From Promethearchaeota archaeon (GTDB lineage: Archaea; Asgardarchaeota; Hermodarchaeia; Hermodarchaeales; Hermodarchaeaceae): a stretch of DNA of 35,526 bases. A program made the position numbers and the translations under genes. The notes below the pieces were generated by a model. The model saw nothing but the letters and a program-made list of their open reading frames with translations, was not told the origin of the DNA and ran no database searches. Numbering within the stretch: the first letter of the stretch is position 1; each line of letters opens with the position of its first letter. The DNA lies in the NCBI GenBank assembly GCA_048939245.1, contig JBHLPR010000022.1, positions 1 to 35,526 on the forward strand, written 5' to 3'. Shown piece after piece: positions 2,271-19,775 of the stretch.

Positions 2271-3632
2271 ATGACCAAAGCAGAACGACCACCAACCAAA
2301 GAAGAACTTCTCGAAAAAGCCAAACAACCGGCTAAAGAAGCGATGCAACTCCACCCATATTATAAAGGGAAAATCCAGACCATCCCCAAATGCACTATTC
2401 GGGGCTTTGAAGATTTTGCCATCTGGTATACTCCCGGTGTCGCTGCACCCTGCCGTGACATCCAAGCTAGCCCCGAAAAAGTTTGGGACCATACCAATAA
2501 AGCCAACTCAATAGCCGTAGTAACCGACGGAAGCCGGGTTCTCGGTCTGGGTAACATTGGTCCTGAAGCGGCCATGCCCGTGATGGAAGGAAAGGCACTG
2601 ATTTTCAAATATTTAGGTGGTGTCGATGCGGTACCAATCTGTTTGAATACTCAAGACCCTGAAAATTTTATTCGGGCGACAAAACTTCTTCAACCCAGCT
2701 TCGGTGGTATCAATCTCGAAGATATCTCTAAACCCAAATGTTTCAATATCTTACATCGTCTCAGAACGGACATGACTATTCCTGTCTGGCATGATGATGC
2801 ACAGGGAACCGCCGCAATTATCTTAGCAGGACTCCTTGGTGCCTTACGGTTTGTCGGAAAAGAAATTAATCAAGTTCAAATTGCTATGCTCGGAGTGGGG
2901 GCGGCAAATACCACAACCGCTGAAATTCTTATGGAGGCCGGTGTGCCTGCAGGAAACCTCATTCTTTGTGATCGTCATGGACTCTTGTATAAGGATCGCG
3001 AAGATATGAAGGTCATGAAGGATGAGGAACATGAAAAGTATGATCTCGCGATTCTGACTAACGCCGAACAACGTACCGGGAATTTTGGTGACGCTCTTCG
3101 TGGTGCCGATGTGTGTATATCGGCTTCATCGCCACAACCTGGGCTCATCAAGAAAGAATGGGTTGAACAAATGGCCTCAGATGCAATTGTATTTGCTTGT
3201 GCAAACCCTCTACCAGAAATTTGGCCTTGGGAAGCTAAAGAGGCGGGAGCAAAGGTTGTGGGCACCGGGCGATCCGATTTCGATAACCAAATAAACAACA
3301 GTTTAGGATTTCCCGCAATCTTTCGCGGAGCACTAGATGTTCGTGCGACCACGATCACCGATGAAATGTGTATTGCTGCGGCTAATGCACTTGCTGACAT
3401 TGCTGAAGAACGTGGCCTTCGTGAAGAATATGTGATTCCCAGTATGCATGAATGGGAACTTTATCCCCGTGAAGCCACAGCAGTAGGTATGAAGGCCATC
3501 GAACAAGGGGTGGCCCGAAAAGAATGGGAAACAGAAGAGCTCCTCAAGCATGCCACGAAAATCATTAAACGGTCTATTGATGTGACGCAATCACTGATGG
3601 ATAATGGATTCATACCCAAAGCACCAATCTAG
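2271..3632 (+). CDS. NAD(P)-dependent malic enzyme
   Basis: YTPGVA, VTDGSRVLGLGNIG, PVMEGKA, INLEDI, HDDAQGT, GVGAA, ANPLPEI and NQINN motifs. Confidence 0.96.
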   Translation: MTKAERPPTKEELLEKAKQPAKEAMQLHPYYKGKIQTIPKCTIRGFEDFAIWYTPGVAAPCRDIQASPEKVWDHTNKANSIAVVTDGSRVLGLGNIGPEAAMPVMEGKALIFKYLGGVDAVPICLNTQDPENFIRATKLLQPSFGGINLEDISKPKCFNILHRLRTDMTIPVWHDDAQGTAAIILAGLLGALRFVGKEINQVQIAMLGVGAANTTTAEILMEAGVPAGNLILCDRHGLLYKDREDMKVMKDEEHEKYDLAILTNAEQRTGNFGDALRGADVCISASSPQPGLIKKEWVEQMASDAIVFACANPLPEIWPWEAKEAGAKVVGTGRSDFDNQINNSLGFPAIFRGALDVRATTITDEMCIAAANALADIAEERGLREEYVIPSMHEWELYPREATAVGMKAIEQGVARKEWETEELLKHATKIIKRSIDVTQSLMDNGFIPKAPI

Positions 3633-4499: not shown

Positions 4500-5177
4500 A
4501 TGAAGTTGAAGGCTTTCTTATCTGATCTTGATGGTACTCTCATTGATACCCGGGAAAGAGCGATACATGCTCACTCCAACGGATTACATGCCGTTGGATA
4601 CGCTGTGCTTCCTACGCAAATCCGCTCATTATACTACTACTCCTTTGATACCCGGGACTTGCTCAATCGGTTGAACATACAGCTCTCTAAGTCTGAATAC
4701 ATGAAATATCTCTCAGGGTTCCGAGAATACTTCTTCTCTGCTATCCACCACTCACGAGTCTTTCCAGCCACGATACACGCCCTAAAACATCTTCGACCGC
4801 TCACCGAACATATGCGCATAATCACTTCACGACAAGATAGTCACCAGGCACGACAAGAAATCAAGCATTTTGGGCTGGATTCATGGTTTGAAGATATTGT
4901 CACACGAGGAGACTTAGCTACTGCTGAAGGTCAAGACCGGATTCCCCTTTTTCCATTTGTACCACACCGTCAGCGATTAATCAAGTTGGCACTCAAAGAT
5001 GTCAAAACTGAAGGTGATGTATGGGTAGTTGGCGATTCAAAAGGGGAACTGGAAGCTGCGAAAAGCCTTGGTTATGTCACCATCGGTGTTCTCACCGGGT
5101 TTGGCACCATTGATGATTTAACTCCCGTTGCTACCCATGTAATCAATTCAATTGCAGAGATTGTGCACCTTATCTAG
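4500..5177 (+). CDS. HAD-superfamily hydrolase, paralog 2
   Basis: DLDGTL, ITSR, VGDS. Same length (225 aa) as the upstream gene and colinear with it. Confidence 0.88.
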   Translation: MKLKAFLSDLDGTLIDTRERAIHAHSNGLHAVGYAVLPTQIRSLYYYSFDTRDLLNRLNIQLSKSEYMKYLSGFREYFFSAIHHSRVFPATIHALKHLRPLTEHMRIITSRQDSHQARQEIKHFGLDSWFEDIVTRGDLATAEGQDRIPLFPFVPHRQRLIKLALKDVKTEGDVWVVGDSKGELEAAKSLGYVTIGVLTGFGTIDDLTPVATHVINSIAEIVHLI

Positions 5178-5201
5178 CTTGCCGAAAGAAGGAAAGTAGT
5201 C

Positions 5202-6671
5202 ATGAGCCCTTCCTCTCCTCCCCCACATTCACAGGATAACATTTCCGATACTCGCCGATTTGAACCACGGCAGTATCAAGAACATATCCTTCAACGAATC
5301 AAGGACAATTGGGAACACAATATTTTGGTGGAACTGGACTGCGGACTTGGGAAACGTGTTATCACCTTCAAATTGGTGACGGAATATTTTCCGGAGACGC
5401 GATTCATCATCACTGTGAATTCTTCTTCCTCGCTTCAAGAAACTGCGCAATACCTTGAAGAAGAGTATGGAGGTGTTGATGGGTTAGGGGTCCTTTCTCC
5501 CCGTATTCAGGGGCGTCGTCGTCAACAACTTCTTCATGACTCCCGAGTTGTGCTCTGTACGCCACGTGTGCTAGCTAATATCCTCAAAAAGGGAGGTTTT
5601 TCGAGCTCAGATTTTGAGGGACTCTTAATTAATGAGGTGGATACGCTTCTTCGACGGGTAGGAGATACTCGAGTTCTCATTCAACCTTGGAGTTATTTGC
5701 TAGAGTTTTTCAAAGAAAATTGGATTATCGGGCTTAGTGGAACACTCCGAGATGACCATGTAGTATTCAACCAAGCTCAACTCCAGATTCGTGACGAACT
5801 TCAAACACTTGCTAACTTTCTACCCAACGTTGAACTCATTAGCATGGATGAACTCATAGACACCGATTTGGATCAATATATCAAACACACTATCCTCGAT
5901 GTCATCCCTGTCGAAGATTCCGTCATACGCGCAACTTCGCTTGTCGTCGATGAACTAATCCAATCTACTCGCGATCAAATTTATCAAATGGTCCGAGAAA
6001 ACTCAGAGCAAAGTATCAGAGAACTCCCAGAATCCACTCGCATGCTACATTTGATGCTCCATGAACTCCCCATCCCCGAAGAGCTCGCCCAGCAATATAG
6101 TGGACTCCTCATGACCCGAAAATATCTTTACGGTATGGCCTCCAAGAGCTTTCGCCGATATCTTCATCATCCCACGATCAAATCCCAGATTGATATTAAC
6201 CGCATGATGCAAGACTGGCCAAAAGTTACCCCTAAATCTCTGAAAGCTCGAGACCTAGCATTGAAGGCGAAAAGAACTATCATCCTCTCCTCATATCTCA
6301 ATGTCGTGAGCGAAATCGAAGGACTGCTACAGGAGAAAGGCGTTCACACTTTCCAGCTTACTGGACGAACTCCAGACAAACAAGCTGTTTTAGCCGATTT
6401 CAAACACGCTAAAACTCCAGCGGCTGTGATTCTCTCGCCAGTCGGTGAACGAGATCTCGACTTGCCCGATGCTGATCTTCTTATTATCTGTGATACTGTA
6501 AATACGGTGAAGACGATTTACCAGAAAATGAAACGCAGCCGGGGTGGACGAGTTAGCTTTCTAGTCTATGCAAATACATCCGAAGTCGGAAAGTTACGAC
6601 GTCTCCTAAATAACATTATGGACCGATATCCTTGGTCCACCCGATATGGCAATACAAGCGCCTTGTACTAA
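5202..6671 (+). CDS. Hef/FANCM/Mph1-like SF2 helicase with degenerate ATPase motifs and no ERCC4 nuclease domain
   Basis: EPRQYQ, NILVELDCGLGKR (cf. LPTGLGKT), CTPR, INEVD (cf. DEAH), GLSGT, GERDLDLP, QKMKRSRGG (cf. QRxGRxGR). Confidence 0.75.
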   Translation: MSPSSPPPHSQDNISDTRRFEPRQYQEHILQRIKDNWEHNILVELDCGLGKRVITFKLVTEYFPETRFIITVNSSSSLQETAQYLEEEYGGVDGLGVLSPRIQGRRRQQLLHDSRVVLCTPRVLANILKKGGFSSSDFEGLLINEVDTLLRRVGDTRVLIQPWSYLLEFFKENWIIGLSGTLRDDHVVFNQAQLQIRDELQTLANFLPNVELISMDELIDTDLDQYIKHTILDVIPVEDSVIRATSLVVDELIQSTRDQIYQMVRENSEQSIRELPESTRMLHLMLHELPIPEELAQQYSGLLMTRKYLYGMASKSFRRYLHHPTIKSQIDINRMMQDWPKVTPKSLKARDLALKAKRTIILSSYLNVVSEIEGLLQEKGVHTFQLTGRTPDKQAVLADFKHAKTPAAVILSPVGERDLDLPDADLLIICDTVNTVKTIYQKMKRSRGGRVSFLVYANTSEVGKLRRLLNNIMDRYPWSTRYGNTSALY

Positions 6672-6711
6672 ACTCAATCAGCTTCTTTTTGAACCTATCT
6701 TCAGATGGATG

Positions 6712-7263
6712 TTAATTCGTGAGCCATCGATACCACACTGCGATACTGACAAGACTAACAAACATTGAAAGGAAGACAGTTGAAATGGCAATGCCCCAAA
6801 GTACGGAAATCGTCTCTGGAAGATACAATGGGTTTTGAGGAAAGGGTGGCATGGAAATCTCAGCTATACTAAACAGGGTTGGCATAAAGAAAAACCACTG
6901 CGTCCATAATGCCACCATCACAACTGTTACAGCTGTACTCAGCAGAAACCACCGTAAATGATGCGGTTGGTTTGCTGGATGTGATGCCACACTAATCAAC
7001 AGCATAGAAAGCCACGGACCAAACAGGGATGTGACAACAATCATTGATGACTGAAAACTAAGAAGAACCCCGATGAGATGAACCACTATGCTTTCAGGAG
7101 GCAGAGTGGTATTTTGCAGAATCGATACAGCACTCAAGGCTTCAACGAGAAACACAAAAGCAACAATCAAGATAACCGTTACAGCAGCTGAGAATAATAG
7201 AAACAGAATTCGCCAGTACAACCTCCGTCCAGGATATACTGAAAAATCATATGTAAATGCCAA
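6712..7263 (-). CDS. Hypothetical membrane protein with about 4 TM segments (paralog A)
   Basis: Four hydrophobic segments. Shares YPG...WR, W.SM......HP and a C-terminal VW..WL with the neighbouring gene. Confidence 0.75.
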   Translation of the reverse strand: MAFTYDFSVYPGRRLYWRILFLLFSAAVTVILIVAFVFLVEALSAVSILQNTTLPPESIVVHLIGVLLSFQSSMIVVTSLFGPWLSMLLISVASHPANQPHHLRWFLLSTAVTVVMVALWTQWFFFMPTLFSIAEISMPPFPQNPLYLPETISVLWGIAISTVFLSMFVSLVSIAVWYRWLTN

Positions 7264-7363
7264 AGAAGCTCCCTCGTTTACAAAACGGAGGCTTTCGTAT
7301 TAAAATGCACGGATAGGGATGACTTGAATCGTTTTTCTTGTGTGTGATTCTCTAATTATGGAT

Positions 7364-7864
7364 CTACTTCAAAGGTCTAGGGTTGAGCCACTTCCACCAC
7401 ACGACAATGCTTTGTATGGCAATGAAGAATCCAATAATTGTAAAAATAATTGAGTTCGCTACTAAGATATTCAAAATGCCCCAATCTGGGGGAGGCATCA
7501 AATTAGCCCAATGGAAGTACTGTATGAATTCTCCCCAACAAAGACTAACAAACGTGGCAACTAACAATCCGTTAGTCACCCATTCGCCATATTTGGGGTG
7601 TTTTGGGTGAGTGCATCCAAAGACTACAATCATGCTATACCAAGCACCAATAAGCACTGTAATTGACACGATTAATATGAAGTTAAAGAACGAGTTGGGG
7701 CTTGCCAACCACCAAACGGATTGCAGCATGGCTTGTCTGACCAATTCAAACAGAACGAGTTGACTCACAAATAAGCTGATGATAGCAATTGTCAGAATTA
7801 TGAATCCTACTCGCCAGACACGATTAAAACCAGGATATAACTCTACTATTCGATCCATGCCCAA
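7364..7864 (-). CDS. Hypothetical membrane protein with about 4 TM segments (paralog B)
   Basis: Four hydrophobic segments; motifs shared with 6712-7263. Confidence 0.75.
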   Translation of the reverse strand: MGMDRIVELYPGFNRVWRVGFIILTIAIISLFVSQLVLFELVRQAMLQSVWWLASPNSFFNFILIVSITVLIGAWYSMIVVFGCTHPKHPKYGEWVTNGLLVATFVSLCWGEFIQYFHWANLMPPPDWGILNILVANSIIFTIIGFFIAIQSIVVWWKWLNPRPLK

Positions 7865-7981
7865 ACAACTCCGAACCTCGGGGTCAGTTACTAGTGTGTC
7901 CTATCTAGCATGACTCCAATTATATCTCTGTATTACAAGGATTTAACAATTCAAAACAATGTTGGAACATGTGAATCACGC

Positions 7982-8614
7982 ATGGTCGAACAAGAAATTC
8001 AATCGAATGAAGAACAATCACGGATTCCACCGGTCTTTCCTGTGTATATCTTCGAGAGGACTTGCAAAGAGATATTCAACTACTGCCTTGATGCAGCTTT
8101 AGGTCCCTCACGACGGGAAGCCTTAGGCGTCATCCTGGGCTTTCGCCGAATCTGGAATGGAGAAAAATACATTCGGGTCACCGATTGGGCAACGGGACGT
8201 GTTGAAGCCAGTATTGCTCATGCACGATTCACACCTGAAGGCATTCTCGAATATCGACTTGCACTCCATGACCGGTACGGAAATAATCCTCATACTCCTC
8301 GGGTCGTAGGTCTTTGGCATTCACATCCGTTTGGAGGCAATCCTCACTTTTCCTCGACCGATTTGAACACATTCTTTAATACGCCCTTTTGTGCTGAAGG
8401 AAACGTGTTCTTTTTGATTGATCCAATAAGTGAGATTTTTAAAGTCTACATGCTCCGCGAACGCCTTGATGAGCCTGGTCTACAACTTGAACAAGTAAAA
8501 TGGTGTACGTATCGTCCCTCTGTTCCCCTTGGTAAACCTGAATCTCGCAAAGACTTGGTCGCACCTGAGGAGGTTGAACCCGGTAATGACGAGGAAAACG
8601 CCCACGCCGATTGA
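7982..8614 (+). CDS. JAB/MPN+ (JAMM) metalloprotease, putative Ubl maturase/deconjugase
   Basis: REALG Glu and WHSHPFGGNPHFSSTD (HxH...SxxD). The start is probably ATG 7982 (the ORF is open from 7910). Confidence 0.9.
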   Translation: MVEQEIQSNEEQSRIPPVFPVYIFERTCKEIFNYCLDAALGPSRREALGVILGFRRIWNGEKYIRVTDWATGRVEASIAHARFTPEGILEYRLALHDRYGNNPHTPRVVGLWHSHPFGGNPHFSSTDLNTFFNTPFCAEGNVFFLIDPISEIFKVYMLRERLDEPGLQLEQVKWCTYRPSVPLGKPESRKDLVAPEEVEPGNDEENAHAD

Positions 8615-9500
8615 TCTTCATTTCTTTGAGAAGGATCATCATGATCGAACTCGCCGCTGGTTAGGGGTCACCAATCTAGAAACAATTCGACAGTCTACAG
8701 TACTCATGATTGGGGCTGGCGCTGTGGGTAACGAGGTATGTAAGAATCTTGGGTTACTGGGTATTGGCAAAATTATTCTGGTCGATCCTGATAAGGTCGC
8801 GACCTCGAATTTGAATCGGTGTGTGTTCTTTCGACCTGAGGATCATGATGTGAAGTCCAAAGTCGATGCTGTGGCGGAACGACTCCCTGAACTAGCGACC
8901 GATACACGAATCGACCCTTATGCTATTCCTATTCAAGAAGCACCTGATAGTGTTTGGGATGTGGATCTCGTGCTCGTCGGGGTGGATAATCATTATGCAC
9001 GTTACTTGTTAAACGCCAAGAATCTCAGCTTAGATTCCCCTTTACCGTTGATTAATGGAGCTATGGGAAAAGATTTCGTTACCATTGATGTTCTGGCGCC
9101 ACCACACACAGCATGTCTAGTATGTTCTTGGAGTAAAGACTTTGTCGATGCTATTGTTGCGAATCAAGTGCGCACCCGCTGTGACCCTTTCTTCGTTGAT
9201 ACTCTGCCTCGCTTTCCCATGATTAGTTTCGTCACCTCGATTGTTGGCGCAGTGATGTCCTGGGAGGCGACCAAAGTGCTAGTAGGTCTACAACAATGGC
9301 GTAAAACAGGCAAATGGCAACAAGACTTGAAACCTGCTCTAGGGCGATACATCAAATACGACTTACAACGACATGAGACATCAACCGGAGCAATCCTGCC
9401 CAATCCCCGTTGCAGTGAGGCCTTCTGCCGTTCCAAACGAAAATATGCCCAATCTCTAAGAGGCTTGGAAACCCACGACCTGTCTCACCTTCCACGTTGA
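8586..9500 (+). CDS. ThiF/MoeB/UBA-family E1 activating enzyme
   Basis: GAGAVG, DPDKVATSNLNR, GVDN..AR, CLVC plus C-terminal CSEAFC Zn ligands, and a putative catalytic Cys in RTRCD. ATG 8586 overlaps the end of the JAB gene. Confidence 0.92.
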   Translation: MTRKTPTPIDLHFFEKDHHDRTRRWLGVTNLETIRQSTVLMIGAGAVGNEVCKNLGLLGIGKIILVDPDKVATSNLNRCVFFRPEDHDVKSKVDAVAERLPELATDTRIDPYAIPIQEAPDSVWDVDLVLVGVDNHYARYLLNAKNLSLDSPLPLINGAMGKDFVTIDVLAPPHTACLVCSWSKDFVDAIVANQVRTRCDPFFVDTLPRFPMISFVTSIVGAVMSWEATKVLVGLQQWRKTGKWQQDLKPALGRYIKYDLQRHETSTGAILPNPRCSEAFCRSKRKYAQSLRGLETHDLSHLPR

Positions 9501-10328
9501 ACTTAACCGAGGAGGACTAGTGTGTGGTTGTTGTCTCCAACTGACCTTGAATTCACGATTCGCCCGGATATCCATCCAATTCCCAATAATCAAGGGAAGG
9601 TGCCGATTCGTGATGCCCAGCCATCCATTGGAGCCAAACCAAGTTGGATCCATAGGCACCCACTGATTCCGAATCCATACCTCACTCCATCCATGCCGCT
9701 CCCATTTCTTCTTCGAAGCTGCGAATCCAGAGATTAACCGCGCAGGAATCTTTCTAGCTCTACAGATTGCTGCAAATAGCGCTGAGTACTCCGTACAGTC
9801 ACCAACTTGTTGTTCAATTGCGTATGCTGCCCCTCGCTCATGCTCTTGAGGAACATAACGGAGAGTTTTGGTGACTGCTCGCATAGCTGCTTTGATAAAG
9901 GGAATCAGCTTCCGATGTTTTTTGGCAAGATCACGGGCAAGATCTTTTATCAAGTGGTGATGGGACTCGATGAAATATTCGGGTTCTATATATGACTGCA
10001 GCCGGTTGGGGATTAAGCGATTTTGAATATCTGGTGATGGTTGATAGTGGATGGAGCGATTTCGAATTAAAGCGATGTATCCGCAGGTGAATGTATCATT
10101 TCCTGATAAGTGTGGACACGAGATATTCAGCCAGTTATTTCCCTCTTTATCACTAGCATGCCTACTCGTATTTGGATATGGTTTAATCTCCAACAGCTGT
10201 TGATACGGTTCAAAGGGTGGAGGAAACGCAAGCAGAATTCGAATGTTCGTTAAGGGGCTCGTAGTGGTATTCACTACTTGGGTTTGGTAGGTTAGACGAT
10301 GAGTCAGAATGGCTGAACCTGAAATCAT
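9456..10328 (-). CDS. Transglutaminase-like (papain-fold) protein with an intact Cys-His-Asp triad
   Basis: GDCTEYSALF, IPARLISG, HGWSEVW, WVPMDPTW. Confidence 0.9.
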   Translation of the reverse strand: MISGSAILTHRLTYQTQVVNTTTSPLTNIRILLAFPPPFEPYQQLLEIKPYPNTSRHASDKEGNNWLNISCPHLSGNDTFTCGYIALIRNRSIHYQPSPDIQNRLIPNRLQSYIEPEYFIESHHHLIKDLARDLAKKHRKLIPFIKAAMRAVTKTLRYVPQEHERGAAYAIEQQVGDCTEYSALFAAICRARKIPARLISGFAASKKKWERHGWSEVWIRNQWVPMDPTWFGSNGWLGITNRHLPLIIGNWMDIRANREFKVSWRQQPHTSPPRLSSTWKVRQVVGFQAS

Positions 10329-10711
10329 GGTTCCTGCCCATTTGATGTTGTTGATTCCTCGCTCTGGGCCTCGTCGTCATCAAGAATAATAACTCTACCT
10401 TCAGACGTGTGTTGTGGTTTTCGGTGAACATCACCCAAAAACACCACTTTCGAACCTCGACTAGAATTAGAGATTTCGGCTTCGCGACGTGGTCCGAGGA
10501 ATCGGCTGAAATGGGGCACATGCGTTTCAGTGCCTCGTGCAATGGCTCCTGGACAAATGTCTTCGCCTGCTTCTAACAATAAGGCACGGCAACTAGCACA
10601 AATGTAGCTCCCACAAGATGTGCATATCCACCATTGGCTCCTTGCTTCTTCGAGAGTCACTTGTGAATCGCAAGCCACACATTTGATATGCGATGCCCCG
10701 TGGACACTCAT
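10325..10711 (-). CDS. RING-like zinc-finger protein with a SIM-like acidic tail (putative E3)
   Basis: CVAC-x15-CTSC-x4-CASC-x11-CP...H; tail motifs KVVFLGD and RVIILDDDE. ATGA overlaps with the genes on both sides. Confidence 0.7.
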   Translation of the reverse strand: MSVHGASHIKCVACDSQVTLEEARSQWWICTSCGSYICASCRALLLEAGEDICPGAIARGTETHVPHFSRFLGPRREAEISNSSRGSKVVFLGDVHRKPQHTSEGRVIILDDDEAQSEESTTSNGQEP

Positions 10712-10926
10712 TCTTCTTGGTTCTCCTTCTCAGATTCTTTTCGGACATGGTGAACAGTGACTGAATAATGTGGGGAGAAATTCGGTGGCCGTTCTTCTTC
10801 AAATGGGATGTCTCGTTCTTGTAAGATCACAATCCCGTTATCCTTTGAGAGGTCTTCTGGTGAAGGTTGCTCGTTTTTATTGGGTTCCTCGGTATTTTTT
10901 TTATCATTAGGTGGCTGCTCTGCCAT
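10708..10926 (-). CDS. Small acidic, disordered protein with a SIM-like motif
   Basis: 72 aa, strong GGAGG SD, ATGA overlap with the next gene; rich in P/E/N/K with a GIVILQERD core. Confidence 0.7.
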   Translation of the reverse strand: MAEQPPNDKKNTEEPNKNEQPSPEDLSKDNGIVILQERDIPFEEERPPNFSPHYSVTVHHVRKESEKENQEE

Positions 10927-10938
10927 TAGACTCTCCTC

Positions 10939-11685
10939 CTAACGATCTTCATCATCAAGAATCCGTACAGTTGATTTTTCTTCAGGTTTATCTAGAATTT
11001 GGGGAGTTTTTCGTTGTGAAGTATCTGATGATGAATGAGGTGAAAGAATCTGGACCCGGCCCTGTCGTGGTGAGGTAGAGGCACCAGCTTGGTGTCTCGC
11101 TTCCCATAACCGGTCTAAGGTTTCGACGATATTTTTTGTGTCCTGTTCGTACCATGCCATCGCCGAACTATTGAGTCCATGATCTGATTCAAACTGGGAT
11201 GGTGGCTCTACGCGATCTGGTTTTAGCAGCACAAAGAATGGTAGATCCTCGAGAATTCGGTCAAGCTCTCCTCGAACGGAATAGCACGCATGACCTGTTC
11301 CACTGGCGGCGAGTCGAGGATGAAAAAGGGGGGTTTCAGCTGCAGGTCGGATGGTACCGATATTTTGTGGATATTCTCGTGGTAAATCAAAAACGAATCG
11401 ATGTTCATATCGGATAGCACCTTCATCCGTGAGTGAACGTGGTTGACGGACGATTCCAGGTAGATTCCGCATGGTGAATCGAATACGTTTGTATGCACCA
11501 TCACGATATCGGGCGATAATCGCAACGGTGAAATCACGATTACTCCAGGTGGTATTTTCTCGCCGTGGCGGGTCTGGATCCCATCCACGTCGCCCATAGA
11601 GATTATTGATAGTATCAAAAAATGTTTGAATCTGTGTTTCCACTCGGGCGTTGAAAAGTTCAATCGAGAATACGGGTCGTGTCAT
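10939..11685 (-). CDS. E2/UBC-fold conjugating enzyme with a disordered C-terminal tail
   Basis: FVFDLPREYP...TPLFHPRLAASGTGHAC fits the UBC pattern P-x-x-YP...FHPN...G-x-x-C, with the catalytic Cys present. ATG 11685 follows GAGGG (the ORF is open from 11700). Confidence 0.85.
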   Translation of the reverse strand: MTRPVFSIELFNARVETQIQTFFDTINNLYGRRGWDPDPPRRENTTWSNRDFTVAIIARYRDGAYKRIRFTMRNLPGIVRQPRSLTDEGAIRYEHRFVFDLPREYPQNIGTIRPAAETPLFHPRLAASGTGHACYSVRGELDRILEDLPFFVLLKPDRVEPPSQFESDHGLNSSAMAWYEQDTKNIVETLDRLWEARHQAGASTSPRQGRVQILSPHSSSDTSQRKTPQILDKPEEKSTVRILDDEDR

Positions 11686-11730
11686 GGTGTAATCCCTCAC
11701 AGATGCTTTGCCCTCCTGATTGGGCTCTAT

Positions 11731-12057
11731 TCATTGTTTCTGTCCAACTTCGGGAACGACATCAAGGAGGAAGAATTCGTCGTCAGTGATTTTCGGCTCA
11801 AGCTCACCAAAGGCCACACCGGGACTTAACCGTGTGGGCTCTGGAGCTTTGCGAATCAAGACGAACTCAGCACGTTGATCGCCGATTTTCGCTTTCGCCC
11901 AATCGTCAATACTGACACCTTCATCGCGGGCTTGTGTAACGAGGGTACGGATAACCTCCTCGACTCGAGTTTCCTCATCAATGCCAATCCGGAATTCCTT
12001 TTGGCGTGGCTCAACGTCGACAATGATTGAGCGCCAAAAACCTTCTTCGTTACTCAT
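11731..12057 (-). CDS. Ubiquitin-like (beta-grasp) protein ending EVG-QKQ
   Basis: Strand-strand-helix pattern SIIVDV / EFRIGID / ETRVEEVIRTL, then FVLIRK, LSP..AFGEL, ITDDEFFLLDV and a near-terminal Gly. First gene before the E2; AGGTGA SD. Confidence 0.72.
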   Translation of the reverse strand: MSNEEGFWRSIIVDVEPRQKEFRIGIDEETRVEEVIRTLVTQARDEGVSIDDWAKAKIGDQRAEFVLIRKAPEPTRLSPGVAFGELEPKITDDEFFLLDVVPEVGQKQ

Positions 12058-12299
12058 GTCTGTTCACCTACAAGGTGAGGGTTATATCATCCACATTAAC
12101 TTTATGTGAACCTTAGGCGGCTTCTTATCCTTTTTAACGGTTGAAAGAGAATAGGTCGGCTTAATATCGCAGATAAATGGCGCCGACTCCTTCGTTGGAG
12201 TGAAAGTTTAAGAGTCACGGACTAGTCTGACTTAGTAGACTTGGGCAAGAGTGAAAATGGCATCTGCTCAGGATAACCCGCGGGAGCTCATCTGATAGA
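12058..12299. promoter_or_regulatory. Divergent promoter region between the Ubl operon and the SMC operon
   Basis: 242-bp gap between head-to-head genes. TATA-like elements near 12082-12087 (-) and GAAAGTTTAAG at 12202-12212 (+); short inverted repeats at 12064-12078 and 12092-12108. Confidence 0.55.
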
Positions 12300-15194
12300 A
12301 TGACCACTAGGCAAGAGACAACCCTTTCAACCTCACCGGTCGTGTTTCGCAGTATCCGCCTAGTCAATTTTGTCATTCATCGCGACACCACTATTGAACT
12401 CGATGAGTCACCCGTCGTTCTCATCACCGGATCAAATGGAAGTGGTAAAACTCTCATTCTTGATGCGCTTCTGCTAGCTATTGGAGTTGAATCTAGGCGG
12501 GCTCAACGCCAACGAAATTCCGCCTTCATTGGACGATTTGGCAAATATGCCGAAGTCGAATTAGAACTTAATAACTTCCAGATCAACGGGTGCCGTGTCT
12601 TACGTAGCCCTGATACCGCTTTATCCAAACTTCTGGACAAAGATGTGGTTTCGATTCGCCTTCGGATTCATAATACCAACAGGGTATCCTATTGGCTGAA
12701 TGGGCAACGATCGGTAAATGGACACCAAATTGCGCGAAAGGATATCCGAAAGCTGTTTCAAGCGGCTGGGTTGTTCGGGGATTCTCCACTAGCGGTTACA
12801 GAAGCTGAAACATTAGATCATTTTGCTTCTCAATCACCTCGAAGAAAATTCGAAACGCTTCTCAACGAAACTGGATTAAGGAGTTGGATGGAAAAACTCG
12901 AAGAAGCCCGACTATTAGTTTTACAGGCAAAAGCCAATGTTAAACCTCTTGAATACCGCATTCGCCATGAACAACAACGGCAACAAGTTTTGAAAGCAGC
13001 CTATGAAGCCTTTCAGCAAAAACAGCAACTCCAACAACGACAAAAAGACCTCGATGTTGAAGCTGCTTGGGCAGAAGTCTCCTACCGCGAAGAACTCGCA
13101 ACTCAACTCCAATCACAGATTACGACATTAGACAATCAACTAACAGTTGAGAATGGCAAACTGGACAAACTCAATTCCCGTCAGGCTAGTCTACAAGATA
13201 AGTTGGATGCAAATCTGGCCAAACGGGAAAAACTCTTGGCAACAATGAACGAGCTCCGCGACCAGCAAATGCAATCTCAAGGACATCGTCAAGGATTAGA
13301 AAATGAACTTAACGCACTCAAAGCACGGACAAAACGATATACTAGACGTCAGAAACCTGCTAATACAAAAATCGACAGCATTCAGAAAGAATTAGACGAA
13401 TTCGTGAGTGAGCGAGATAAACTCGATGATCAACTGTCACAGGTTCGTCAAGATGTAGCATCAGCTGAAGAAGGACTCTTCTCGCAGCCCCAACGGTACC
13501 CACACTTTGAAGAAAAAATCCTTCGCGCCTGTCTACGTTTTCGTTCTGAACTAGATAAAATTGCCCTCTCCGATTCAGTCATTGGTCCACTTTTTACGCT
13601 TATCCGGATGAAACCTGAATATACCCAACATGAAACTGCGGTGAAACTCGCCTTAGGTCGCTACACCTACTCGTTTATCGCACTTAACCGCGAAGTTTTC
13701 GTCGAAGCCAAGAACCTTTATGATCGGCTCTGGCCTCACGAAAAACCTGACTTGGTGGTCGCCCGTACAAATCCCACCACTGCAATCACGCGAGACCGGC
13801 CGGCTGTTTCATCACCTGTAATTGGGTGGGCTGCAGATCTCATCGAAGGCGATCTGTACGCGGTGAGTTTTCTTAACCGTGTAGTAAATACTGCCATCGC
13901 AGAAGAAGGTGCTGATCCAAATACGTTAGTAGATGCCACTCAACAGCTCAATGGTAACATCATCACTAGTGAAGGTTCAAGCCATTATCTCCGAATAGGC
14001 GCATTTACTCGTCCTCCCCGTCCAGTAACTGTCAGCTTAGATATCACACTCCATGAACTGAGTCTAACACACGACGTTACTGACGGACGTCGCCAGCTTC
14101 GCGAACTTCGGGAGCAGGAAGCTCATTTCATGCGGGATCGGATGCGCATTAATGCAGAGATAAGCCAACTTCGATCTATCCTTCAAGATTTGCAGGCAGC
14201 CCATACCATTCAGCTATCTAGTGAAGAACGAACTGCTTTAATCACGGATGCAGACCGTCGCATTACAGAACTTCAACAGCAGATTCTTGAATTAGAAACT
14301 GGCTGTGATGCACTCAGCCAAGATTATCAAGACTGTAACTCGGATTTATCGCCACTCAATTCCAGACAACAAGAAATCACAGGACAACTCCACACTCTTA
14401 GCTCACGGCAATCTCGTCGTCAAGCAGAAATTGACCGTTTATCTGATGAGCTCAAACAACGAGAAGATGAATACGAACATCTCATGAAACAAACCAAGGA
14501 CTTCCGAAAAGCTGCAACCAAGCTTGCGGAACGCCCTGCGGTGGTTCGAGAACCTACTGCGATCCGTGATGAGCAAATCCAAATCCAGGCTATGATTGAT
14601 ACTATCACAGCAACGGCAGAAGATCGTCACGCTTTTGAAGAACAAGAAAAGGTGGTGTCTCAACTCCAAGAATATCTCACTCAACGACAGCTTCATCTTG
14701 AAAATCTCATGACGGACGTTGATCGTCGATTACTGGAGTGGCGGCGACAACTCGAACAAACAGTCGAAACTTTGAACCAACGAATGAATCAGCTGCTTAG
14801 CCACTTCCTCAAACAAGTCAAATTACTTATTCGCTTTCCTGACGAACCCAGTCGGGCAGAACTCCACCTCCAATTGGCTATCAATCGTAGAGGTGAATGG
14901 CGAACCTATCAGGAAATGTCGGGCGGGGAACGTGTGCTGGCTACTCAAACCTTTATTTTAGCACTGCATACCCTTGCAAAGAGTCCTCTTCACGTGATTG
15001 ATGAATTCACTCAACGTCTAGATGAAGCAAGCCGCGCAGCAATTCTTAGTGTCGTTCAGCGAGCCCTTGATTTGACCCAGCAAGAATCACTAATCAATCC
15101 CCAATTTCTATTAATGGCTCCATCCACAGTAGGGCTTCAGATTCCAGAGACAATGCACCACGTGGTCCTCCTTAAAGGGCAGGTGAAGAAATGA
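12300..15194 (+). CDS. SMC-family ATPase of Smc5/6 type
   Basis: IRLVNFVIH, Walker A GSNGSGKT, two coiled coils around a hinge (VIGPLFTLI...AVKLALGRYTYSFI), signature MSGGER, SPLHVIDEFTQRLD, QFLLMAP. Confidence 0.88.
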   Translation: MTTRQETTLSTSPVVFRSIRLVNFVIHRDTTIELDESPVVLITGSNGSGKTLILDALLLAIGVESRRAQRQRNSAFIGRFGKYAEVELELNNFQINGCRVLRSPDTALSKLLDKDVVSIRLRIHNTNRVSYWLNGQRSVNGHQIARKDIRKLFQAAGLFGDSPLAVTEAETLDHFASQSPRRKFETLLNETGLRSWMEKLEEARLLVLQAKANVKPLEYRIRHEQQRQQVLKAAYEAFQQKQQLQQRQKDLDVEAAWAEVSYREELATQLQSQITTLDNQLTVENGKLDKLNSRQASLQDKLDANLAKREKLLATMNELRDQQMQSQGHRQGLENELNALKARTKRYTRRQKPANTKIDSIQKELDEFVSERDKLDDQLSQVRQDVASAEEGLFSQPQRYPHFEEKILRACLRFRSELDKIALSDSVIGPLFTLIRMKPEYTQHETAVKLALGRYTYSFIALNREVFVEAKNLYDRLWPHEKPDLVVARTNPTTAITRDRPAVSSPVIGWAADLIEGDLYAVSFLNRVVNTAIAEEGADPNTLVDATQQLNGNIITSEGSSHYLRIGAFTRPPRPVTVSLDITLHELSLTHDVTDGRRQLRELREQEAHFMRDRMRINAEISQLRSILQDLQAAHTIQLSSEERTALITDADRRITELQQQILELETGCDALSQDYQDCNSDLSPLNSRQQEITGQLHTLSSRQSRRQAEIDRLSDELKQREDEYEHLMKQTKDFRKAATKLAERPAVVREPTAIRDEQIQIQAMIDTITATAEDRHAFEEQEKVVSQLQEYLTQRQLHLENLMTDVDRRLLEWRRQLEQTVETLNQRMNQLLSHFLKQVKLLIRFPDEPSRAELHLQLAINRRGEWRTYQEMSGGERVLATQTFILALHTLAKSPLHVIDEFTQRLDEASRAAILSVVQRALDLTQQESLINPQFLLMAPSTVGLQIPETMHHVVLLKGQVKK

Positions 15195-15988
15195 TGATTT
15201 CCAATGATACTTCTACTTTCCTCCGTGCCTTTCCGCGACGTAAAGCCTGGTACGACACATTCCAGCATAACTACAAACGGAATCAGCTAACCAAACATGG
15301 CACAAAAACCGTGGTCATCACCCTCTGGAATCTCACGAAAAAATACGAAGTAGCTCTCAAACAACATGAGGTATTTCCCGTTAAAGAAGCGGAAATAGAC
15401 CGCGAGGAAGTCACTGATGCATATCGCGTACTCGAAACACCTTGGGAACGAAACCTCGATGGTCGCTTCTATTACACACTTGCTTCAATGCAACACCATC
15501 GCGATTCTCAATTGGCTACTCCTGAAATTGCCCCTGAAGAATGGATTTCCCAATTTGCCAATGAGGTTAAACGTCGGGCTACTCCTCTTCTGTTTCTAAT
15601 CAATCCTGATCATACTATTCCACCGCTCGATTTACCTCCTACAGATTCTCCTGTAGCAATGGCTGAACCACCTTCCCCCGACGATCAGCAGGCAATGCGC
15701 CGACATCGAATACCTTTCAAAGACATTTCGTTCGATGATCTTGATGCCCGGCGAGCCTCAATCGTGAAGCGCCTCCAAGGAAAACGGTACAACTACATAG
15801 CATTATCAGAACTCTTAACAAACTGGGAATTGGATCTATTAAGCCAACTGATTCGAGATGATATACTCCCGGCTACCTTCGAAAAAACTGTAGTTCACTT
15901 CCGGAAATCATCACCATCTCGAAAAGCGGATTCAATATATGCAGCTGTTGCTATTGCTGCAAAAAACCATGAGGAGGTTACACATTGA
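15191..15988 (+). CDS. Hypothetical protein, putative kleisin (Nse4/ScpA-like)
   Basis: Overlaps both the smc stop and the KITE start. Helical N-terminus, Pro-rich linker (PPLDLPPTDSP..EPPSP) and a C-terminal region compatible with a winged helix. The kleisin call is positional only. Confidence 0.45.
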   Translation: MMISNDTSTFLRAFPRRKAWYDTFQHNYKRNQLTKHGTKTVVITLWNLTKKYEVALKQHEVFPVKEAEIDREEVTDAYRVLETPWERNLDGRFYYTLASMQHHRDSQLATPEIAPEEWISQFANEVKRRATPLLFLINPDHTIPPLDLPPTDSPVAMAEPPSPDDQQAMRRHRIPFKDISFDDLDARRASIVKRLQGKRYNYIALSELLTNWELDLLSQLIRDDILPATFEKTVVHFRKSSPSRKADSIYAAVAIAAKNHEEVTH

Positions 15989-16632
15989 CGACATCCAATC
16001 CCCCCTCTTCTGAATCCGCCAAACCCACCGATACGCCAAAAGACGATGAATTCGAGCAACGCCATCTCCTCGGTCAATTATTCGCCGCACTCACCGCACG
16101 ATTTCGTAATGAAGAAGGGCAACTCAGCATCGGAGTCAAACGGCAAAATCTTCTAGAAGCTCTGCATATCAACAAATCAGGGCTGACTCGTCTACTGGAT
16201 TTACTCCGGCAACAGATTTCCCCCCTTGGATTGGAATTAGTTGAATATCGATTGGGACGTGATACCCTCTATTGTATCCGAACTATCTATGGCGTTCCAG
16301 GAGAACTCTCAGATCCCGAATATGCTGTACTCGGAGTTATCATCTCCACGGTGGAACGTGCTAGTAAACATCGCCGACCGCGACACGTCTCGACGAAAGA
16401 TATCGAAACTATTCTCGTTGCCCGTGGGCGCCTTTCCCGTTATCAATTGGATAAAATCCTAAGGCGTCTGACGGAATTGGGATATATTAACCGATCTACT
16501 CGACGAGTGGCTTATGGTCCACGACTCGAACTTGAATTTGATTCGGAACGTCGCGAAGCCATCGCCAACGCTGCCACCCTCTATCTCGCTGGTGCCGTTT
16601 CTCAAAGGGAGGACACAAAGAATGAAACTTGA
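15985..16632 (+). CDS. KITE tandem winged-helix protein (Nse1/Nse3-MAGE/ScpB-like)
   Basis: LLDLLRQQISPLGLELVE (wH-A), LSDPEYAVLGVII, LDKILRRLTELGYI...YGPRLELE (cf. MAGE/Nse3 WGPRAxxE). Confidence 0.75.
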   Translation: MTTSNPPSSESAKPTDTPKDDEFEQRHLLGQLFAALTARFRNEEGQLSIGVKRQNLLEALHINKSGLTRLLDLLRQQISPLGLELVEYRLGRDTLYCIRTIYGVPGELSDPEYAVLGVIISTVERASKHRRPRHVSTKDIETILVARGRLSRYQLDKILRRLTELGYINRSTRRVAYGPRLELEFDSERREAIANAATLYLAGAVSQREDTKNET

Positions 16633-17083
16633 TCTTTCTACAGTCGGGATTAGTTGTGTGGCGTGTGGTACACGAACAACACTCGAAGAGGCAATTCAAA
16701 ATGGGTGGCATCAATGTCTCCGTTGTCAATTTTTCATTGATCCCCATTGTCTTCAAATCGTCCAAAACACCATGGGTGGTACATGTCCGTCATTTAGTCA
16801 AGGCGTTTCTCGCCATACTCTACAGCTATCTGACATTCCTTCAGAACAAATCCTCATCTTTGTAAAAGATCAATATCAGAAAGGTCGGGTCGGGGTCTTA
16901 ATTGACACTCTGTTTTATTCTAAGGATCTAAGGTTAGAAAAACCTCACCATTCGAGTCGGCTCCACCCCGAACCTGAAGAAGCCCTTACACGAGAAGAAA
17001 TTTGGCAACGCTACGGTCTTGTTTTAGTTCAGCGAACTCAGGGCAAATGGAAAACTTGGGAAAAAATTGGTACTACAGGCTAA
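16622..17083 (+). CDS. RING-like zinc-finger protein (Nse1 RING-like), paralog of 10325-10711
   Basis: CVAC...GWHQCLRC...IDPHC...CPS...H. ATG 16622 follows a GGAGG SD and overlaps the KITE stop. Confidence 0.7.
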   Translation: MKLDLSTVGISCVACGTRTTLEEAIQNGWHQCLRCQFFIDPHCLQIVQNTMGGTCPSFSQGVSRHTLQLSDIPSEQILIFVKDQYQKGRVGVLIDTLFYSKDLRLEKPHHSSRLHPEPEEALTREEIWQRYGLVLVQRTQGKWKTWEKIGTTG

Positions 17084-17504
17084 AATCCCTACAAAGCGTA
17101 AACTATTTACCACTCACTCCATTACAACTTTTCAACGAATTTACATTGCGTGCTATATGGAGTTATTGGGTGTGGTTGACGCAAAATCTCCTAGTTGGGT
17201 AAAGCAAGTTGTTCGACGATGGAAACAATTCTATCAAGAAATCCAATATGCTGATGGGCAACTGGATATGTCAAATCCCCTGAGCCTTATCTTCCAAAGA
17301 GAAATTCTTCCACAAGAAGCAGCAGCGCAAACCGCTAAAGGCGTTTCCCCATCACCTGAACCGCTTCCTTCGAAGAAAAAAGAGTCGGTAAAATCTCAAC
17401 CACAGAAAGCTCCGTCAAAAACAAAACATAAACAGAATAAAGGGCGGTTTTTCTCCAAACTAAAGGAAATCCAATGTCTCCTCAACCCTTACCCCTTTTT
17501 CTGA
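17067..17504 (+). CDS. Hypothetical protein, last gene of the SMC operon
   Basis: Overlaps the previous stop; helical N-terminal half and a Lys/Pro/Ser-rich basic tail. Confidence 0.6.
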   Translation: MVLQAKIPTKRKLFTTHSITTFQRIYIACYMELLGVVDAKSPSWVKQVVRRWKQFYQEIQYADGQLDMSNPLSLIFQREILPQEAAAQTAKGVSPSPEPLPSKKKESVKSQPQKAPSKTKHKQNKGRFFSKLKEIQCLLNPYPFF

Positions 17505-17505
17505 G

Positions 17506-18492
17506 CTAGTCTGATTCCTTCGCTCCTACTCCAAGTTCGGTGAGGATCTTGTCAACGATCTCCTTAGCTTGTTTTTTCGTGGCTGCTGATTCCGTAGTTG
17601 GTTCATCGCGAACATCGGCAGGAAGCTGGGGGAGTCCAGCAAGTGTTCGGACAATTCCGGAGATGGCGTGTTTAGCGACTGACACTTCGGATCCTCCGGA
17701 TAGTAATACGACTAATCGACCTGAACAGACTTCTTCTGCGGCCTGCATAAGAATCTCCGTCATAGCTGGAAAGGCCGCTAATGACAGATTAAATCCACCA
17801 TAATCCAATGCGTGTGCATCGTGTCCCATATTCCATAGAATCATCTCGGGGCGAATCTGACGGGCCAAGGGGTGCACCAATCGGCGAACTGCTGTGACAA
17901 AGGAGTCATCACTACTGCTGCTGGGAAAGGGAACGTCTATATGGCGGTGTGTGACCAAATCGAAGCTCTCTCGAAAACTCGCTTCAAAATTCAGATGGTA
18001 TACTCCTTCATCGTCACCAAGCGTATCACGAGTTCCATCTCCTGGATGGGGATCTGTATCAACAATGAAGAACCGTTTCGCTCCATGTGTTTGCTGCAAA
18101 TGGCGCACTAATAACGCTGTGTTATTGTAATAGCAGAATCCCCAAAAGGAATCACGGCTTGCATGGTGCCCAGCACAACCAGTAAAAGCAAACGCATTCG
18201 CAGCGTCACCTACCCACACAGCTTCACCAGCACGAATAGCTGAACCACTGGATACCAATGAAGCAGGATCATACCCTGAATCTTTTACCCTTCTGATGTG
18301 ATCCGAAGTATGGACCTTTAGAAGCAACTTTTCACTTACTTTCGGGGCTTCTTCTACTTTGGTCTGGGTAGCATCGAGAGTTCCAGTTTCTCGAAGATAA
18401 TCAAAGGCTGGTTGTACTCGGCCCGCCAATACTGGGTAGCCTTCAACCGCCATTAGAGGGTGGTAAAGAATAAGGGTTGGTTTCTTTCTCAT
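17506..18492 (-). CDS. Zn-dependent histone deacetylase family protein
   Basis: GHHA, GFCYYNN, DTDPHPGDGT, GHDAH..D, and LSGGS (normally EGGY). Confidence 0.92.
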   Translation of the reverse strand: MRKKPTLILYHPLMAVEGYPVLAGRVQPAFDYLRETGTLDATQTKVEEAPKVSEKLLLKVHTSDHIRRVKDSGYDPASLVSSGSAIRAGEAVWVGDAANAFAFTGCAGHHASRDSFWGFCYYNNTALLVRHLQQTHGAKRFFIVDTDPHPGDGTRDTLGDDEGVYHLNFEASFRESFDLVTHRHIDVPFPSSSSDDSFVTAVRRLVHPLARQIRPEMILWNMGHDAHALDYGGFNLSLAAFPAMTEILMQAAEEVCSGRLVVLLSGGSEVSVAKHAISGIVRTLAGLPQLPADVRDEPTTESAATKKQAKEIVDKILTELGVGAKESD

Positions 18493-18566
18493 CGTGAAAA
18501 CCGCCTTAATATATGTGGGCGAAAAAGGATTTAACAGGATATGCTATTCTACTCGACAAGCTAAGG

Positions 18567-19775
18567 ATGGGATTAGCATTGGAAATTCGAAAGATTACCA
18601 AAGATGAACGCTTGGCCCTTAATGATCTCTACCGCTACGCCTATACTGAATGGTCAGATCAGGACGTGAAGGATGAAGAATTAGATGATATGCGCATAGA
18701 AGAAACTCTTGGGGTGTTCGAAAATGGACGTTTGGTCTCGTCGTTACGTGTTCATGATTTCCAACAATCTGTGCGCGGTGTTCTCAAATCATGTGGAGGA
18801 ATCGCAGGTGTCGCCACTTACCCAGAAGCCCGACGTAAGGGATTTGTTCGTAAATTAATGCAAGAAAGCTTTACCATCATGCACAAGCAAGGGCAATCGG
18901 TTAGTATGCTCGACCCTTTCAAACAAACCTATTATGAACAATTCGGTTTCGTCGCTGCGAATGCTCCTTATCTCATTGAAGCTCCCATCAAACAGCTAAC
19001 AGTCTGGCATCCAAAGAAACAAGACTCCGATTGGACCTATGAACGCGTTCGTGCAGTCAACGCTAAAGAGGATTACTTAAACTTCGTCCGAGAGGTAGGT
19101 CCCAGTCAATATCATGGCTATATCATTTTCAAAACCATTCCCGATACCATGTGGAAACGACGAGTAAAAGATAGTGTCATCGTCTTCGTAAAATACAAGG
19201 GAAATACTGAGGCATTGAGCCGTTATCGAATCAAAGGTGAACGCATCAAAGGGCAATACCGTTCCACATTCCATGTGATTGATGCCCTTTGGCGATCTAG
19301 AGCGGCTCGAGACCGACTCTTCGCCTTTTATTTGAAGCATCAAGATCAAATCGACAACATCAGTATCCATGCTCCCTTCGAAACTAAAGTGGAACATTGG
19401 TTCAAAGATACTCGATTGAAAGTTGAGCGCAAAACAACCTGGATGGTTCGTATCATCGATGCGAAAAAAGCTATTGAGGACCTTCCAGGAGCCGGCGAGG
19501 ATATCATTTCTGTTGAACTTTCGGATAGTGATTGTCCCTGGAATAACGGTGTGTTTTCTCTGCAATCGGAAAAAGGGCGATTGCGTCTAACTGAAAGCTC
19601 CGGACACTCTGTTGTCAAAAGCTCAATCCAAGCCTTTTCTTCATTACTATATGGGACGCAGTCCCTTGAGGAACTAGAGTTCCAAGGCAATATCACAGTT
19701 TCCGAAAAATGGGCTAGACATATCCTCCAACGCTGGTTTCCCCCTCTCTCCCTGTATAATGTTGTTTACTTCTAG
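18567..19775 (+). CDS. Eis-family GNAT acetyltransferase
   Basis: GGIAGVATYPEARRKG, YYEQFGF, SCP-like C-domain (DSDCPWNNG) and a C-terminal Phe. The start was chosen by alignment to the paralog. Confidence 0.9.
   Translation: MGLALEIRKITKDERLALNDLYRYAYTEWSDQDVKDEELDDMRIEETLGVFENGRLVSSLRVHDFQQSVRGVLKSCGGIAGVATYPEARRKGFVRKLMQESFTIMHKQGQSVSMLDPFKQTYYEQFGFVAANAPYLIEAPIKQLTVWHPKKQDSDWTYERVRAVNAKEDYLNFVREVGPSQYHGYIIFKTIPDTMWKRRVKDSVIVFVKYKGNTEALSRYRIKGERIKGQYRSTFHVIDALWRSRAARDRLFAFYLKHQDQIDNISIHAPFETKVEHWFKDTRLKVERKTTWMVRIIDAKKAIEDLPGAGEDIISVELSDSDCPWNNGVFSLQSEKGRLRLTESSGHSVVKSSIQAFSSLLYGTQSLEELEFQGNITVSEKWARHILQRWFPPLSLYNVVYF

Follow-up and report, generated by a model that had tools for sequence, protein, structure and literature searches.

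A conserved pair of KITE and RING-like zinc protein genes in a second SMC operon of Asgard archaea

Eukaryotic Nse1, part of the Nse1-Nse3-Nse4 module of Smc5/6, joins a tandem winged-helix (WH) KITE and, after it, a two-zinc RING-type finger in a single polypeptide, within an SMC-kleisin complex that has a link to ubiquitin-like tagging. The same outline, divided over two genes, is found in the window analysed here, a stretch of 35,526 nt from a Promethearchaeota archaeon (contig JBHLPR010000022.1). At 15985-17083, the gene of a KITE protein is overlapped by 11 nt (16622-16632, different frames) by the gene of a cysteine-rich, RING-like zinc protein, both being part of an operon with a divergent SMC ATPase and a kleisin candidate. 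The locus raises the question of what such a zinc protein does on an SMC complex and whether the pair bears on the origin of Nse1. The original prediction, made from the DNA letters alone, took the pair for a split Nse1; the coordinates, the overlap, the Cys pattern and the motif YGPRLELEF near the end of the KITE are all present as it described them. The explanation favoured here, to which a probability of roughly 0.6 is given, is that the KITE belongs to a second, Smc5/6-like Asgard SMC complex with the RING-like zinc protein as an obligate and stabilising fourth subunit, which would be E3-like where genes for ubiquitin-like proteins (Ubl) are linked.

Conserved pairing and the KITE fold

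For the census, 400 genomes of the phylum were searched with KITE and zinc protein profiles. Full-length orthologues of the zinc protein were found in 62 genomes, and these very 62 also have the KITE. In 59 of them the zinc gene immediately follows the KITE gene on the same strand, in three (G044, G080 and G084) the two genes are on different contigs, and in none of the 62 are they apart on one contig. This pairing is among the tightest gene couplings that can be found. Three further genomes contain only a paralogue of the zinc protein and four only a distant kite. The pair is near-universal in the families carrying it (f1 17/18, f7 28/31, f8 3/3, f12 11/12) and is present in 8 of the approximately 33 families of the phylum, about 25 being without it. 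The order SMC, kleisin candidate, KITE and zinc gene is kept in loci with protein identities of 30-40%, and the kleisin candidate keeps its place between the SMC and KITE genes in every locus examined. The SMC and kleisin candidate genes overlap by 4 nt (ATGA), as do the kleisin candidate and KITE genes (TTGA), and the four genes form a translationally coupled set. The operon SMC is matched among PDB sequences by the heads of Smc, Smc3, Smc4, Smc5 and Rad50. For two closed genomes of family f7 (G015:C1 and G016:C1), the SMC of this operon is the only long SMC and neither ScpA nor ScpB was found by Pfam; this suggests a core role for it on the chromosome. About 2 kb upstream of this SMC, the N-terminus is duplicated in short form (L040, 16678-17259).

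The start of the zinc gene was set to 16622 because all homologues begin at MKLDLSTVG; a longer open reading frame from 16514 was rejected accordingly. Proteins of 102 aa, which could be taken for a separate family of short forms, were dismissed as gene calls beginning at the internal Met51. The JGI name 'DUF3820' given to one fragment of this type has no Pfam support.

The AlphaFold2 (AF2) model of the KITE protein (P0002), built with 23 homologues, has a pLDDT of 81 and shows two WH domains in succession within a single chain of roughly 200 aa (WH-A at ~39-100 and WH-B at ~110-177). Foldseek matched the model in the PDB to Pyrococcus ScpB (3.5e-5), MAGE-G1 (1.4e-4) and Nse1 (2.4e-4), followed by Geobacillus ScpB, JetB and MukE. 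The best full-length matches are KITE proteins only, the best of all being Nse1. With this model the KITE fold is regarded as established; the likeness to MAGE-G1 is that of the fold common to all KITEs. Y177, G178 and R180 of YGPRLELEF are invariant in the 23 homologues; the likeness of this end to MAGE, proposed in the original prediction, is putative.

No Pfam or NCBIfam family covers the KITE, and the profiles of ScpB (PF04079, at E up to 1), SMC_Nse1 and MAGE do not match it. A profile search against PDB sequences gave nothing significant, the best E-value of 0.016 belonging to an unrelated protein, and the feature search in the ESM Atlas returned weak leads only (MAGE 0.82, DUF4194/MksE 0.79-0.81). 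Weak Pfam matches to MarR and C1, obtained when the KITE, kleisin candidate and zinc protein were searched, are below the cut-offs and were rejected as assignments. The true ScpB of the genome (PF04079, E 2.9e-28) is encoded on contig C32, where it adjoins the tail of the canonical SMC, which is found on C26/C32, away from the operon. This separate ScpB together with the missing PF04079 match rules out a plain ScpB, and the naming of the first gene as a KITE by the original prediction was correct. At E 1e-5 the KITE profile retrieves no ScpB in the 400 genomes; the profile (A2) does reach the non-ScpB kite in the second SMC operon of genome G116 (E 4e-7), which also has a normal ScpB. Judging from these profile searches, the KITE is a second, non-ScpB kite beside the canonical SMC-ScpB, and it fits the class of Nse1/3-like archaeal kites of van Hooff et al. 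(bioRxiv 10.1101/2024.01.07.573240). In the whole genome, SMC_Nse1 (PF07574) is not found at E up to 1; MAGE (PF01454) gave no match in the genome, and none in the control genomes either.

The second SMC operon of G116 (locus L023), which belongs to another Asgard family, consists of genes for an SMC, a kleisin candidate and a kite, and has no zinc gene; therefore, the zinc partner marks one clade of such operons. About 1.7 kb upstream of the operon in L023, a gene at 2610-3350 encodes a protein of 246 aa that combines protease motifs of the SprT/M48 kind with a RING at the C-terminus (zf-RING_2, E 1.3e-4; the zf-RING-like match, E 0.008, does not pass the cut-off). The gene of an AAA ATPase is located between it and the operon.

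The zinc protein

The ligands of the zinc protein are arranged as C12-x2-C15-x16-C32-x2-C35-x4-D40-x2-C43-x11-C55-P56-x8-H65, and the consensus of the family is C-x2-[CDH]-x16-C-x2-C-x4-C-x2-C-x11-C-P-x8-H. Among 60 representatives, C32 and C35 are kept in all, C43 in 58, C55 in 57, C12 in 56 and H65 in 46, and position 15 is Cys, Asp or His in 56. Position 40, which is Asp here, was assigned as the fifth ligand position because Cys occurs there in 57 of the 60. The His of 'DPHC', counted as part of the pattern in the original prediction, is H42 and is not conserved. The domain thus defined has the eight conserved Cys/His(/Asp) ligands of a RING finger, and zinc binding is predicted from them. 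In the AF2 model, residues 8-70 have a pLDDT of 70-83 and a helix begins at ligands 5/6. Residues 74-153 stay below a pLDDT of 50 when the protein is folded alone; in orthologues down to 32% identity F98, Y99, E125, E126, V134, R138, G141, W146 and E147 are nevertheless invariant and W128 is nearly so. Neither the paralogue nor other zinc-domain proteins of the family have this C-terminal part.

In structure and sequence the domain comes closest to fingers of the RING, ZZ, B-box, U-box, IBR and FYVE types, all with low scores, and none of the comparisons reaches significance by itself. The best Foldseek match has E 0.19, and the best matches of the zinc profile among PDB sequences are the RING of a cellulose synthase (E 0.14) and then that of TRIM21, with no Nse1 chain up to E 10. 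None of the RING-clan Pfam models scores above its cut-off over the 60 family members, and zf-RING-like (PF08746) does not match. Below the threshold, IBR was recorded for 15 of the 60, zf-RING_4, FYVE and B-box for 12 each, zf-UDP for 9, and zf-RING_UBOX and zf-C3HC4 for 2 each. The protein has no Pfam or NCBIfam family, and a search of the ESM Atlas with the zinc domain yielded nothing useful. A ZZ or C1 finger in place of a RING had been named as the outcome that would speak against the original prediction; RING and ZZ tie as the nearest fold, ZZ itself being a cross-brace finger. The ZZ consensus ends in two His, whereas the zinc family ends in C-P-x8-H. We conclude that the domain is a new, divergent treble-clef two-zinc finger, the topology of which is probably cross-brace. 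The earlier description of the second gene as RING-like holds in the broad sense of a two-zinc domain with these neighbours, but not in that of a recognised RING model, and the label of an Nse1-type variant RING (vRING) would go beyond the evidence. We know of no ZZ, B-box or U-box family that serves as an SMC subunit.

Among 1.8 billion proteins the zinc family comprises 65 representatives at 50% identity, found in metagenome-assembled genomes (MAGs) labelled Hermodarchaeota, Promethearchaeota, Thorarchaeota, Hodarchaeota, Heimdallarchaeota and Asgardarchaeia. In composite proteins the zinc domain is joined to coiled coils (P0125, P0132, P0137, P0138 and P0146), follows SWIM-like fingers (P0136, P0139, P0152 and P0153) or stands at the end of a Ras-like GTPase (P0148). 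These composites are metagenomic sequences, probably from Asgard archaea. By its architectures, the domain appears as a mobile Asgard module that has no Pfam family.

Linked genes for ubiquitin-like tagging

Divergent from the SMC operon, the window contains genes for a Ubl candidate of 108 aa, an E2-like candidate of 253 aa, a protein of 72 aa, the zinc-domain paralogue and a transglutaminase-fold protein. Beyond this divergent operon follow a JAB deubiquitinase-like gene and a ThiF-type E1 gene; Pfam confirms only JAB, E1 and transglutaminase. RING-type Pfam matches of the paralogue are sub-threshold only. Coordinates are listed in Table 1.

Table 1. Positions of the SMC operon, its sequence elements and the tagging genes in the window
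Feature	Position	Strand	Remarks
Divergent SMC ATPase, 964 aa	12300..15194	+	First operon gene; Pfam SMC_N, E 2.6e-22
Kleisin candidate, 265 aa	15191..15988	+	Place between SMC and KITE genes
KITE, 215 aa	15985..16632	+	TTG start at 15985, TGA at 16630-16632; N-terminal helix, two WH domains, C-terminal helix
GGGAGG, Shine-Dalgarno-like box	16607..16612	+	Within KITE gene, 9 nt 5' of the zinc-gene ATG; read directly from the sequence
Zinc protein gene, 153 aa	16622..17083	+	ATG at 16622; Cys-rich open reading frame
RING-like two-zinc domain (predicted), zinc-protein residues 1-73	16622..16840	+	Eight conserved ligands, AF2 model
Conserved C-terminal part, zinc-protein residues 74-153	16841..17083	+	Invariant residues among orthologues
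Zinc-domain paralogue in divergent Ubl operon	10325..10711	-	Aligns over residues 9-66; Cys/His at all eight ligand positions
JAB deubiquitinase-like and ThiF-type E1 genes	7910..9500	+	Pfam Prok-JAB, E 2.7e-6; ThiF, E 2.4e-35

In two other loci (L001 and L006), the genes for SMC, kleisin candidate, KITE, zinc protein, JAB and E1 follow each other on one strand, with JAB directly after the zinc gene. The same order is found in L004 with two genes interposed, followed by a Ubl/E2-like reading frame. The most complete arrangement, in L041 (G081:C19, family f12, ~4763-12905), is a single-strand string of SMC, kleisin candidate, KITE, zinc protein, JAB, E1, Ubl, E2-like and a small protein, an arrangement from which the two divergent operons of the window may have been derived. 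In L001, L004, L006 and L041 the zinc protein on the SMC side is the only finger beside the tagging enzymes, and this is the best argument for a role of it as an E3-like protein or adaptor.

Small RING E3 proteins are part of archaeal ubiquitin operons, as in the E1/E2/RING cascade of Caldiarchaeum (PMC5654768). They are, likewise, small stand-alone fingers whose genes accompany those for E1, E2-like, Ubl and JAB/Rpn11-like proteins, and the paralogue at 10325-10711 holds this position in the window. The SMC-side zinc protein differs from them in having no RING Pfam match above the threshold and an additional C-terminal part, and in being tied to a kite instead of an E2 gene.

Some further observations concern the neighbourhood. 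In L004, Ubl and E2-like protein were matched within one called gene of 328 aa (14159-15145), suggesting that the two are fused there. In the Ubl operon, the gene with the transglutaminase fold encodes 290 aa in the window and 533-561 aa in L009 (1632-3317) and L020 (2743-4344), the longer genes carrying an extra N-terminal part. After the zinc gene of the window, a small fifth gene (17157..17504, +) has 48-52% identity to its positional counterparts in L008 and L020. Its protein has the core PSWVK..VRRWKQFY..DGQ.D.SNPLS and a Lys-rich basic tail. The gene is restricted to close relatives and absent from more distant loci, and its product may be a fifth, lineage-specific component. In the window as well as in L008, L009 and L020, a gene of the histone deacetylase (HDAC) family (window 17506-18492, -) runs convergently towards the operon. 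Next to it, in the window and L020, comes the gene of a GNAT acetyltransferase with an SCP2 domain (18513-19775, +).

The proposed complex and its relation to Nse1

The complex proposed would be composed of the SMC, the kleisin candidate, a KITE dimer and the zinc protein. Its single kite gene presumably gives a homodimer, in contrast to the Nse1/Nse3 heterodimer. The N-terminus of the zinc protein would be a finger of the RING/ZZ/B-box class (treble-clef, probably cross-brace), and the family-specific C-terminal part probably folds only on the KITE-kleisin module. Deletion of the Nse1 RING mainly destabilises the Nse1/3/4 trimer, and its ligase activity, by which Nse1 modifies Nse4, is weak and debated (PMC8750328). 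The zinc protein most likely acts like this RING in helping to keep the kite-kleisin subcomplex together. In lineages that have JAB, E1, Ubl and E2-like genes in the cluster, it is probably also an E3-like adaptor to the tagging system. Operons related to SMC5/6 have been described from archaea, with an SMC, an Nse4-like kleisin and an Nse1/3-like kite (PMC8665677, Yoshinaga & Inagaki 2021; bioRxiv 10.1101/2024.01.07.573240, van Hooff et al.). Like these, the operon of the window, from an Asgard archaeon, occurs in addition to the canonical SMC-ScpA-ScpB and encodes a kite other than ScpB. The archaeal Smc5/6-like complexes are, however, listed with three subunits and kites without a RING, the Nse1 RING being considered a eukaryotic innovation (bioRxiv 10.1101/2024.01.07.573240), whereas here the kite gene never lacks a fourth gene behind it, the product of which is RING-like. 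No description of a RING-like fourth subunit of an archaeal SMC complex was found in the literature searched. ScpB, the KITE of the canonical Smc-ScpAB, has no zinc-finger partner.

Several points weigh against this explanation, and the co-fold in its favour is weak. The kleisin candidate is identified by its gene position only; it has no Pfam or NCBIfam match, and a profile search against PDB sequences reached a best E-value of 0.58. A co-fold in which two KITE chains were combined with the kleisin candidate and zinc protein, in the presence of two zinc ions, gave a score of 0.54 compared to 0.27 for the best control, the runs sharing at least 22% of contacts and the partner having a pLDDT of at least 51. 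Of 80 solved complexes 58 pass the mark applied, as do 2 of 110 mismatches; at scores ≤ 0.60 only 7 of those 80 and both mismatches do. The co-fold thus supports docking of the zinc protein weakly. When the kleisin candidate was replaced, the score of the zinc protein fell from 0.54 to 0.27, which hints that the kleisin candidate may be part of the docking site. In Nse1 the RING lies on WH-B. The cross-brace pairing of the zinc sites is a prediction. The Ubl and E2-like candidate genes have no Pfam match. Families f7 and f6 keep the pair of KITE and zinc genes with no JAB, E1, Ubl or E2-like gene nearby, and because the pair persists there, a general ligase role with this Ubl system is excluded. 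The E2-like protein was not found in f7, f6 and f8, a result of a single-protein query in five genomes which shows little, as no control genome was matched either.

The original prediction inferred that fusion of such a pair could give Nse1, the unfused copy corresponding to Nse3. On this rival explanation the two genes would be direct ancestors of Nse1 in a still unfused state, and a KITE copy that stayed unfused would have become Nse3. The order of KITE then RING-like finger is indeed that of the Nse1 domains and is strictly conserved in a translationally coupled pair, and the family occurs in MAGs labelled Heimdallarchaeota. The Nse1 RING is a C4HC3 variant RING, and the spacing C-x2-C-x16-C-x2-C-x4-[C/D]-x2-C of the zinc protein agrees with its first six positions (PMC8750328). 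The agreement ends there: ligand 5 is Cys or Asp and not His, the last pair is C-x9-H and not C-x2-C, and Nse1 has nothing that corresponds to the 80 conserved C-terminal residues. Neither the KITE nor the zinc protein is matched by the SMC_Nse1, MAGE and zf-RING-like profiles of Pfam on which the prediction was to be checked. A natural KITE-RING fusion, also sought on its suggestion, did not turn up in any of the 65 representatives of the zinc family, the 53 relatives of the KITE or the 59 loci with adjacent genes, and the two proteins never share an open reading frame, which leaves the fusion scenario without direct support. The 53 proteins retrieved with the KITE profile measure 108-228 aa, with no longer form up to 399 aa. 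Two longer zinc-domain proteins were rejected as KITE fusions at hhalign probabilities of 0.2% and 1.7%. On all features open to a test by sequence, the pair falls outside the Nse1 family. The restriction of the pair to 8 families also argues against direct ancestry, and because the zinc domain is mobile among Asgard proteins, Nse1 could just as easily have acquired its RING independently. A direct descent of Nse1 from this pair is, hence, improbable.

Somewhat less improbable, though still doubtful, is that the zinc protein is a non-catalytic subunit everywhere, which braces the structure or reads DNA or Ubl but has no E3 activity. ZZ and other treble-clef fingers are often readers, ZZ domains score equal to RINGs here, and the missing RING Pfam match, the small residue after ligand 1+1 (Ala/Gly in 42 of 60) and the persistence of the pair in f7 and f6 would agree with such a role, as would the mainly structural effect of losing the Nse1 RING. 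It explains less well why three distant lineages (L001, L006 and L041) have an operon in which the zinc gene stands directly between KITE and JAB-E1, and why a paralogue is found inside the Ubl/E2-like operon, where archaeal ubiquitin operons carry the small RING E3 (PMC5654768). In addition, a Pro follows ligand 7 in 44 of the 60 representatives. This Pro recalls the 'C-P' E2-contact loop of RING domains. Finally, the cluster might be an island for defence or plasmid restriction, combining a Wadjet-like SMC with a Bil/CBASS-like E1-E2-JAB set and using the zinc protein as part of the effector. PADLOC gives generic matches in this direction (LmuB/JetC for the SMC; for the E1 and JAB genes, the models E1-E2, BilD and JAB), and eukaryotic Smc5/6 is itself reported to restrict extrachromosomal DNA (PMC9458440). 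The kleisin candidate, KITE, zinc protein, E2-like protein and Ubl are, however, not matched by PADLOC. The genes are near-universal in carrier families such as f1, f7 and f12 with a stable neighbourhood, their GC content matches the rest of the window, and the SMC of this operon is the only long one in the two closed f7 genomes, all of which makes a defence island very improbable. The reading as a four-subunit, Smc5/6-like complex with a stabilising zinc protein is therefore preferred.

If the pair did give rise to Nse1, the union of Smc5/6 with a RING and its link to ubiquitin-like tagging would be inherited from Asgard archaea and not a eukaryotic invention. The partnership of an SMC, a kite and a zinc finger exists in the closest archaeal relatives of eukaryotes, and the origin of Nse1 is thereby made testable by phylogeny and structure. 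Whether homologous or convergent, it offers a simple system of four proteins in which to ask what a RING does on an SMC complex, a question that is open for Nse1 as well.

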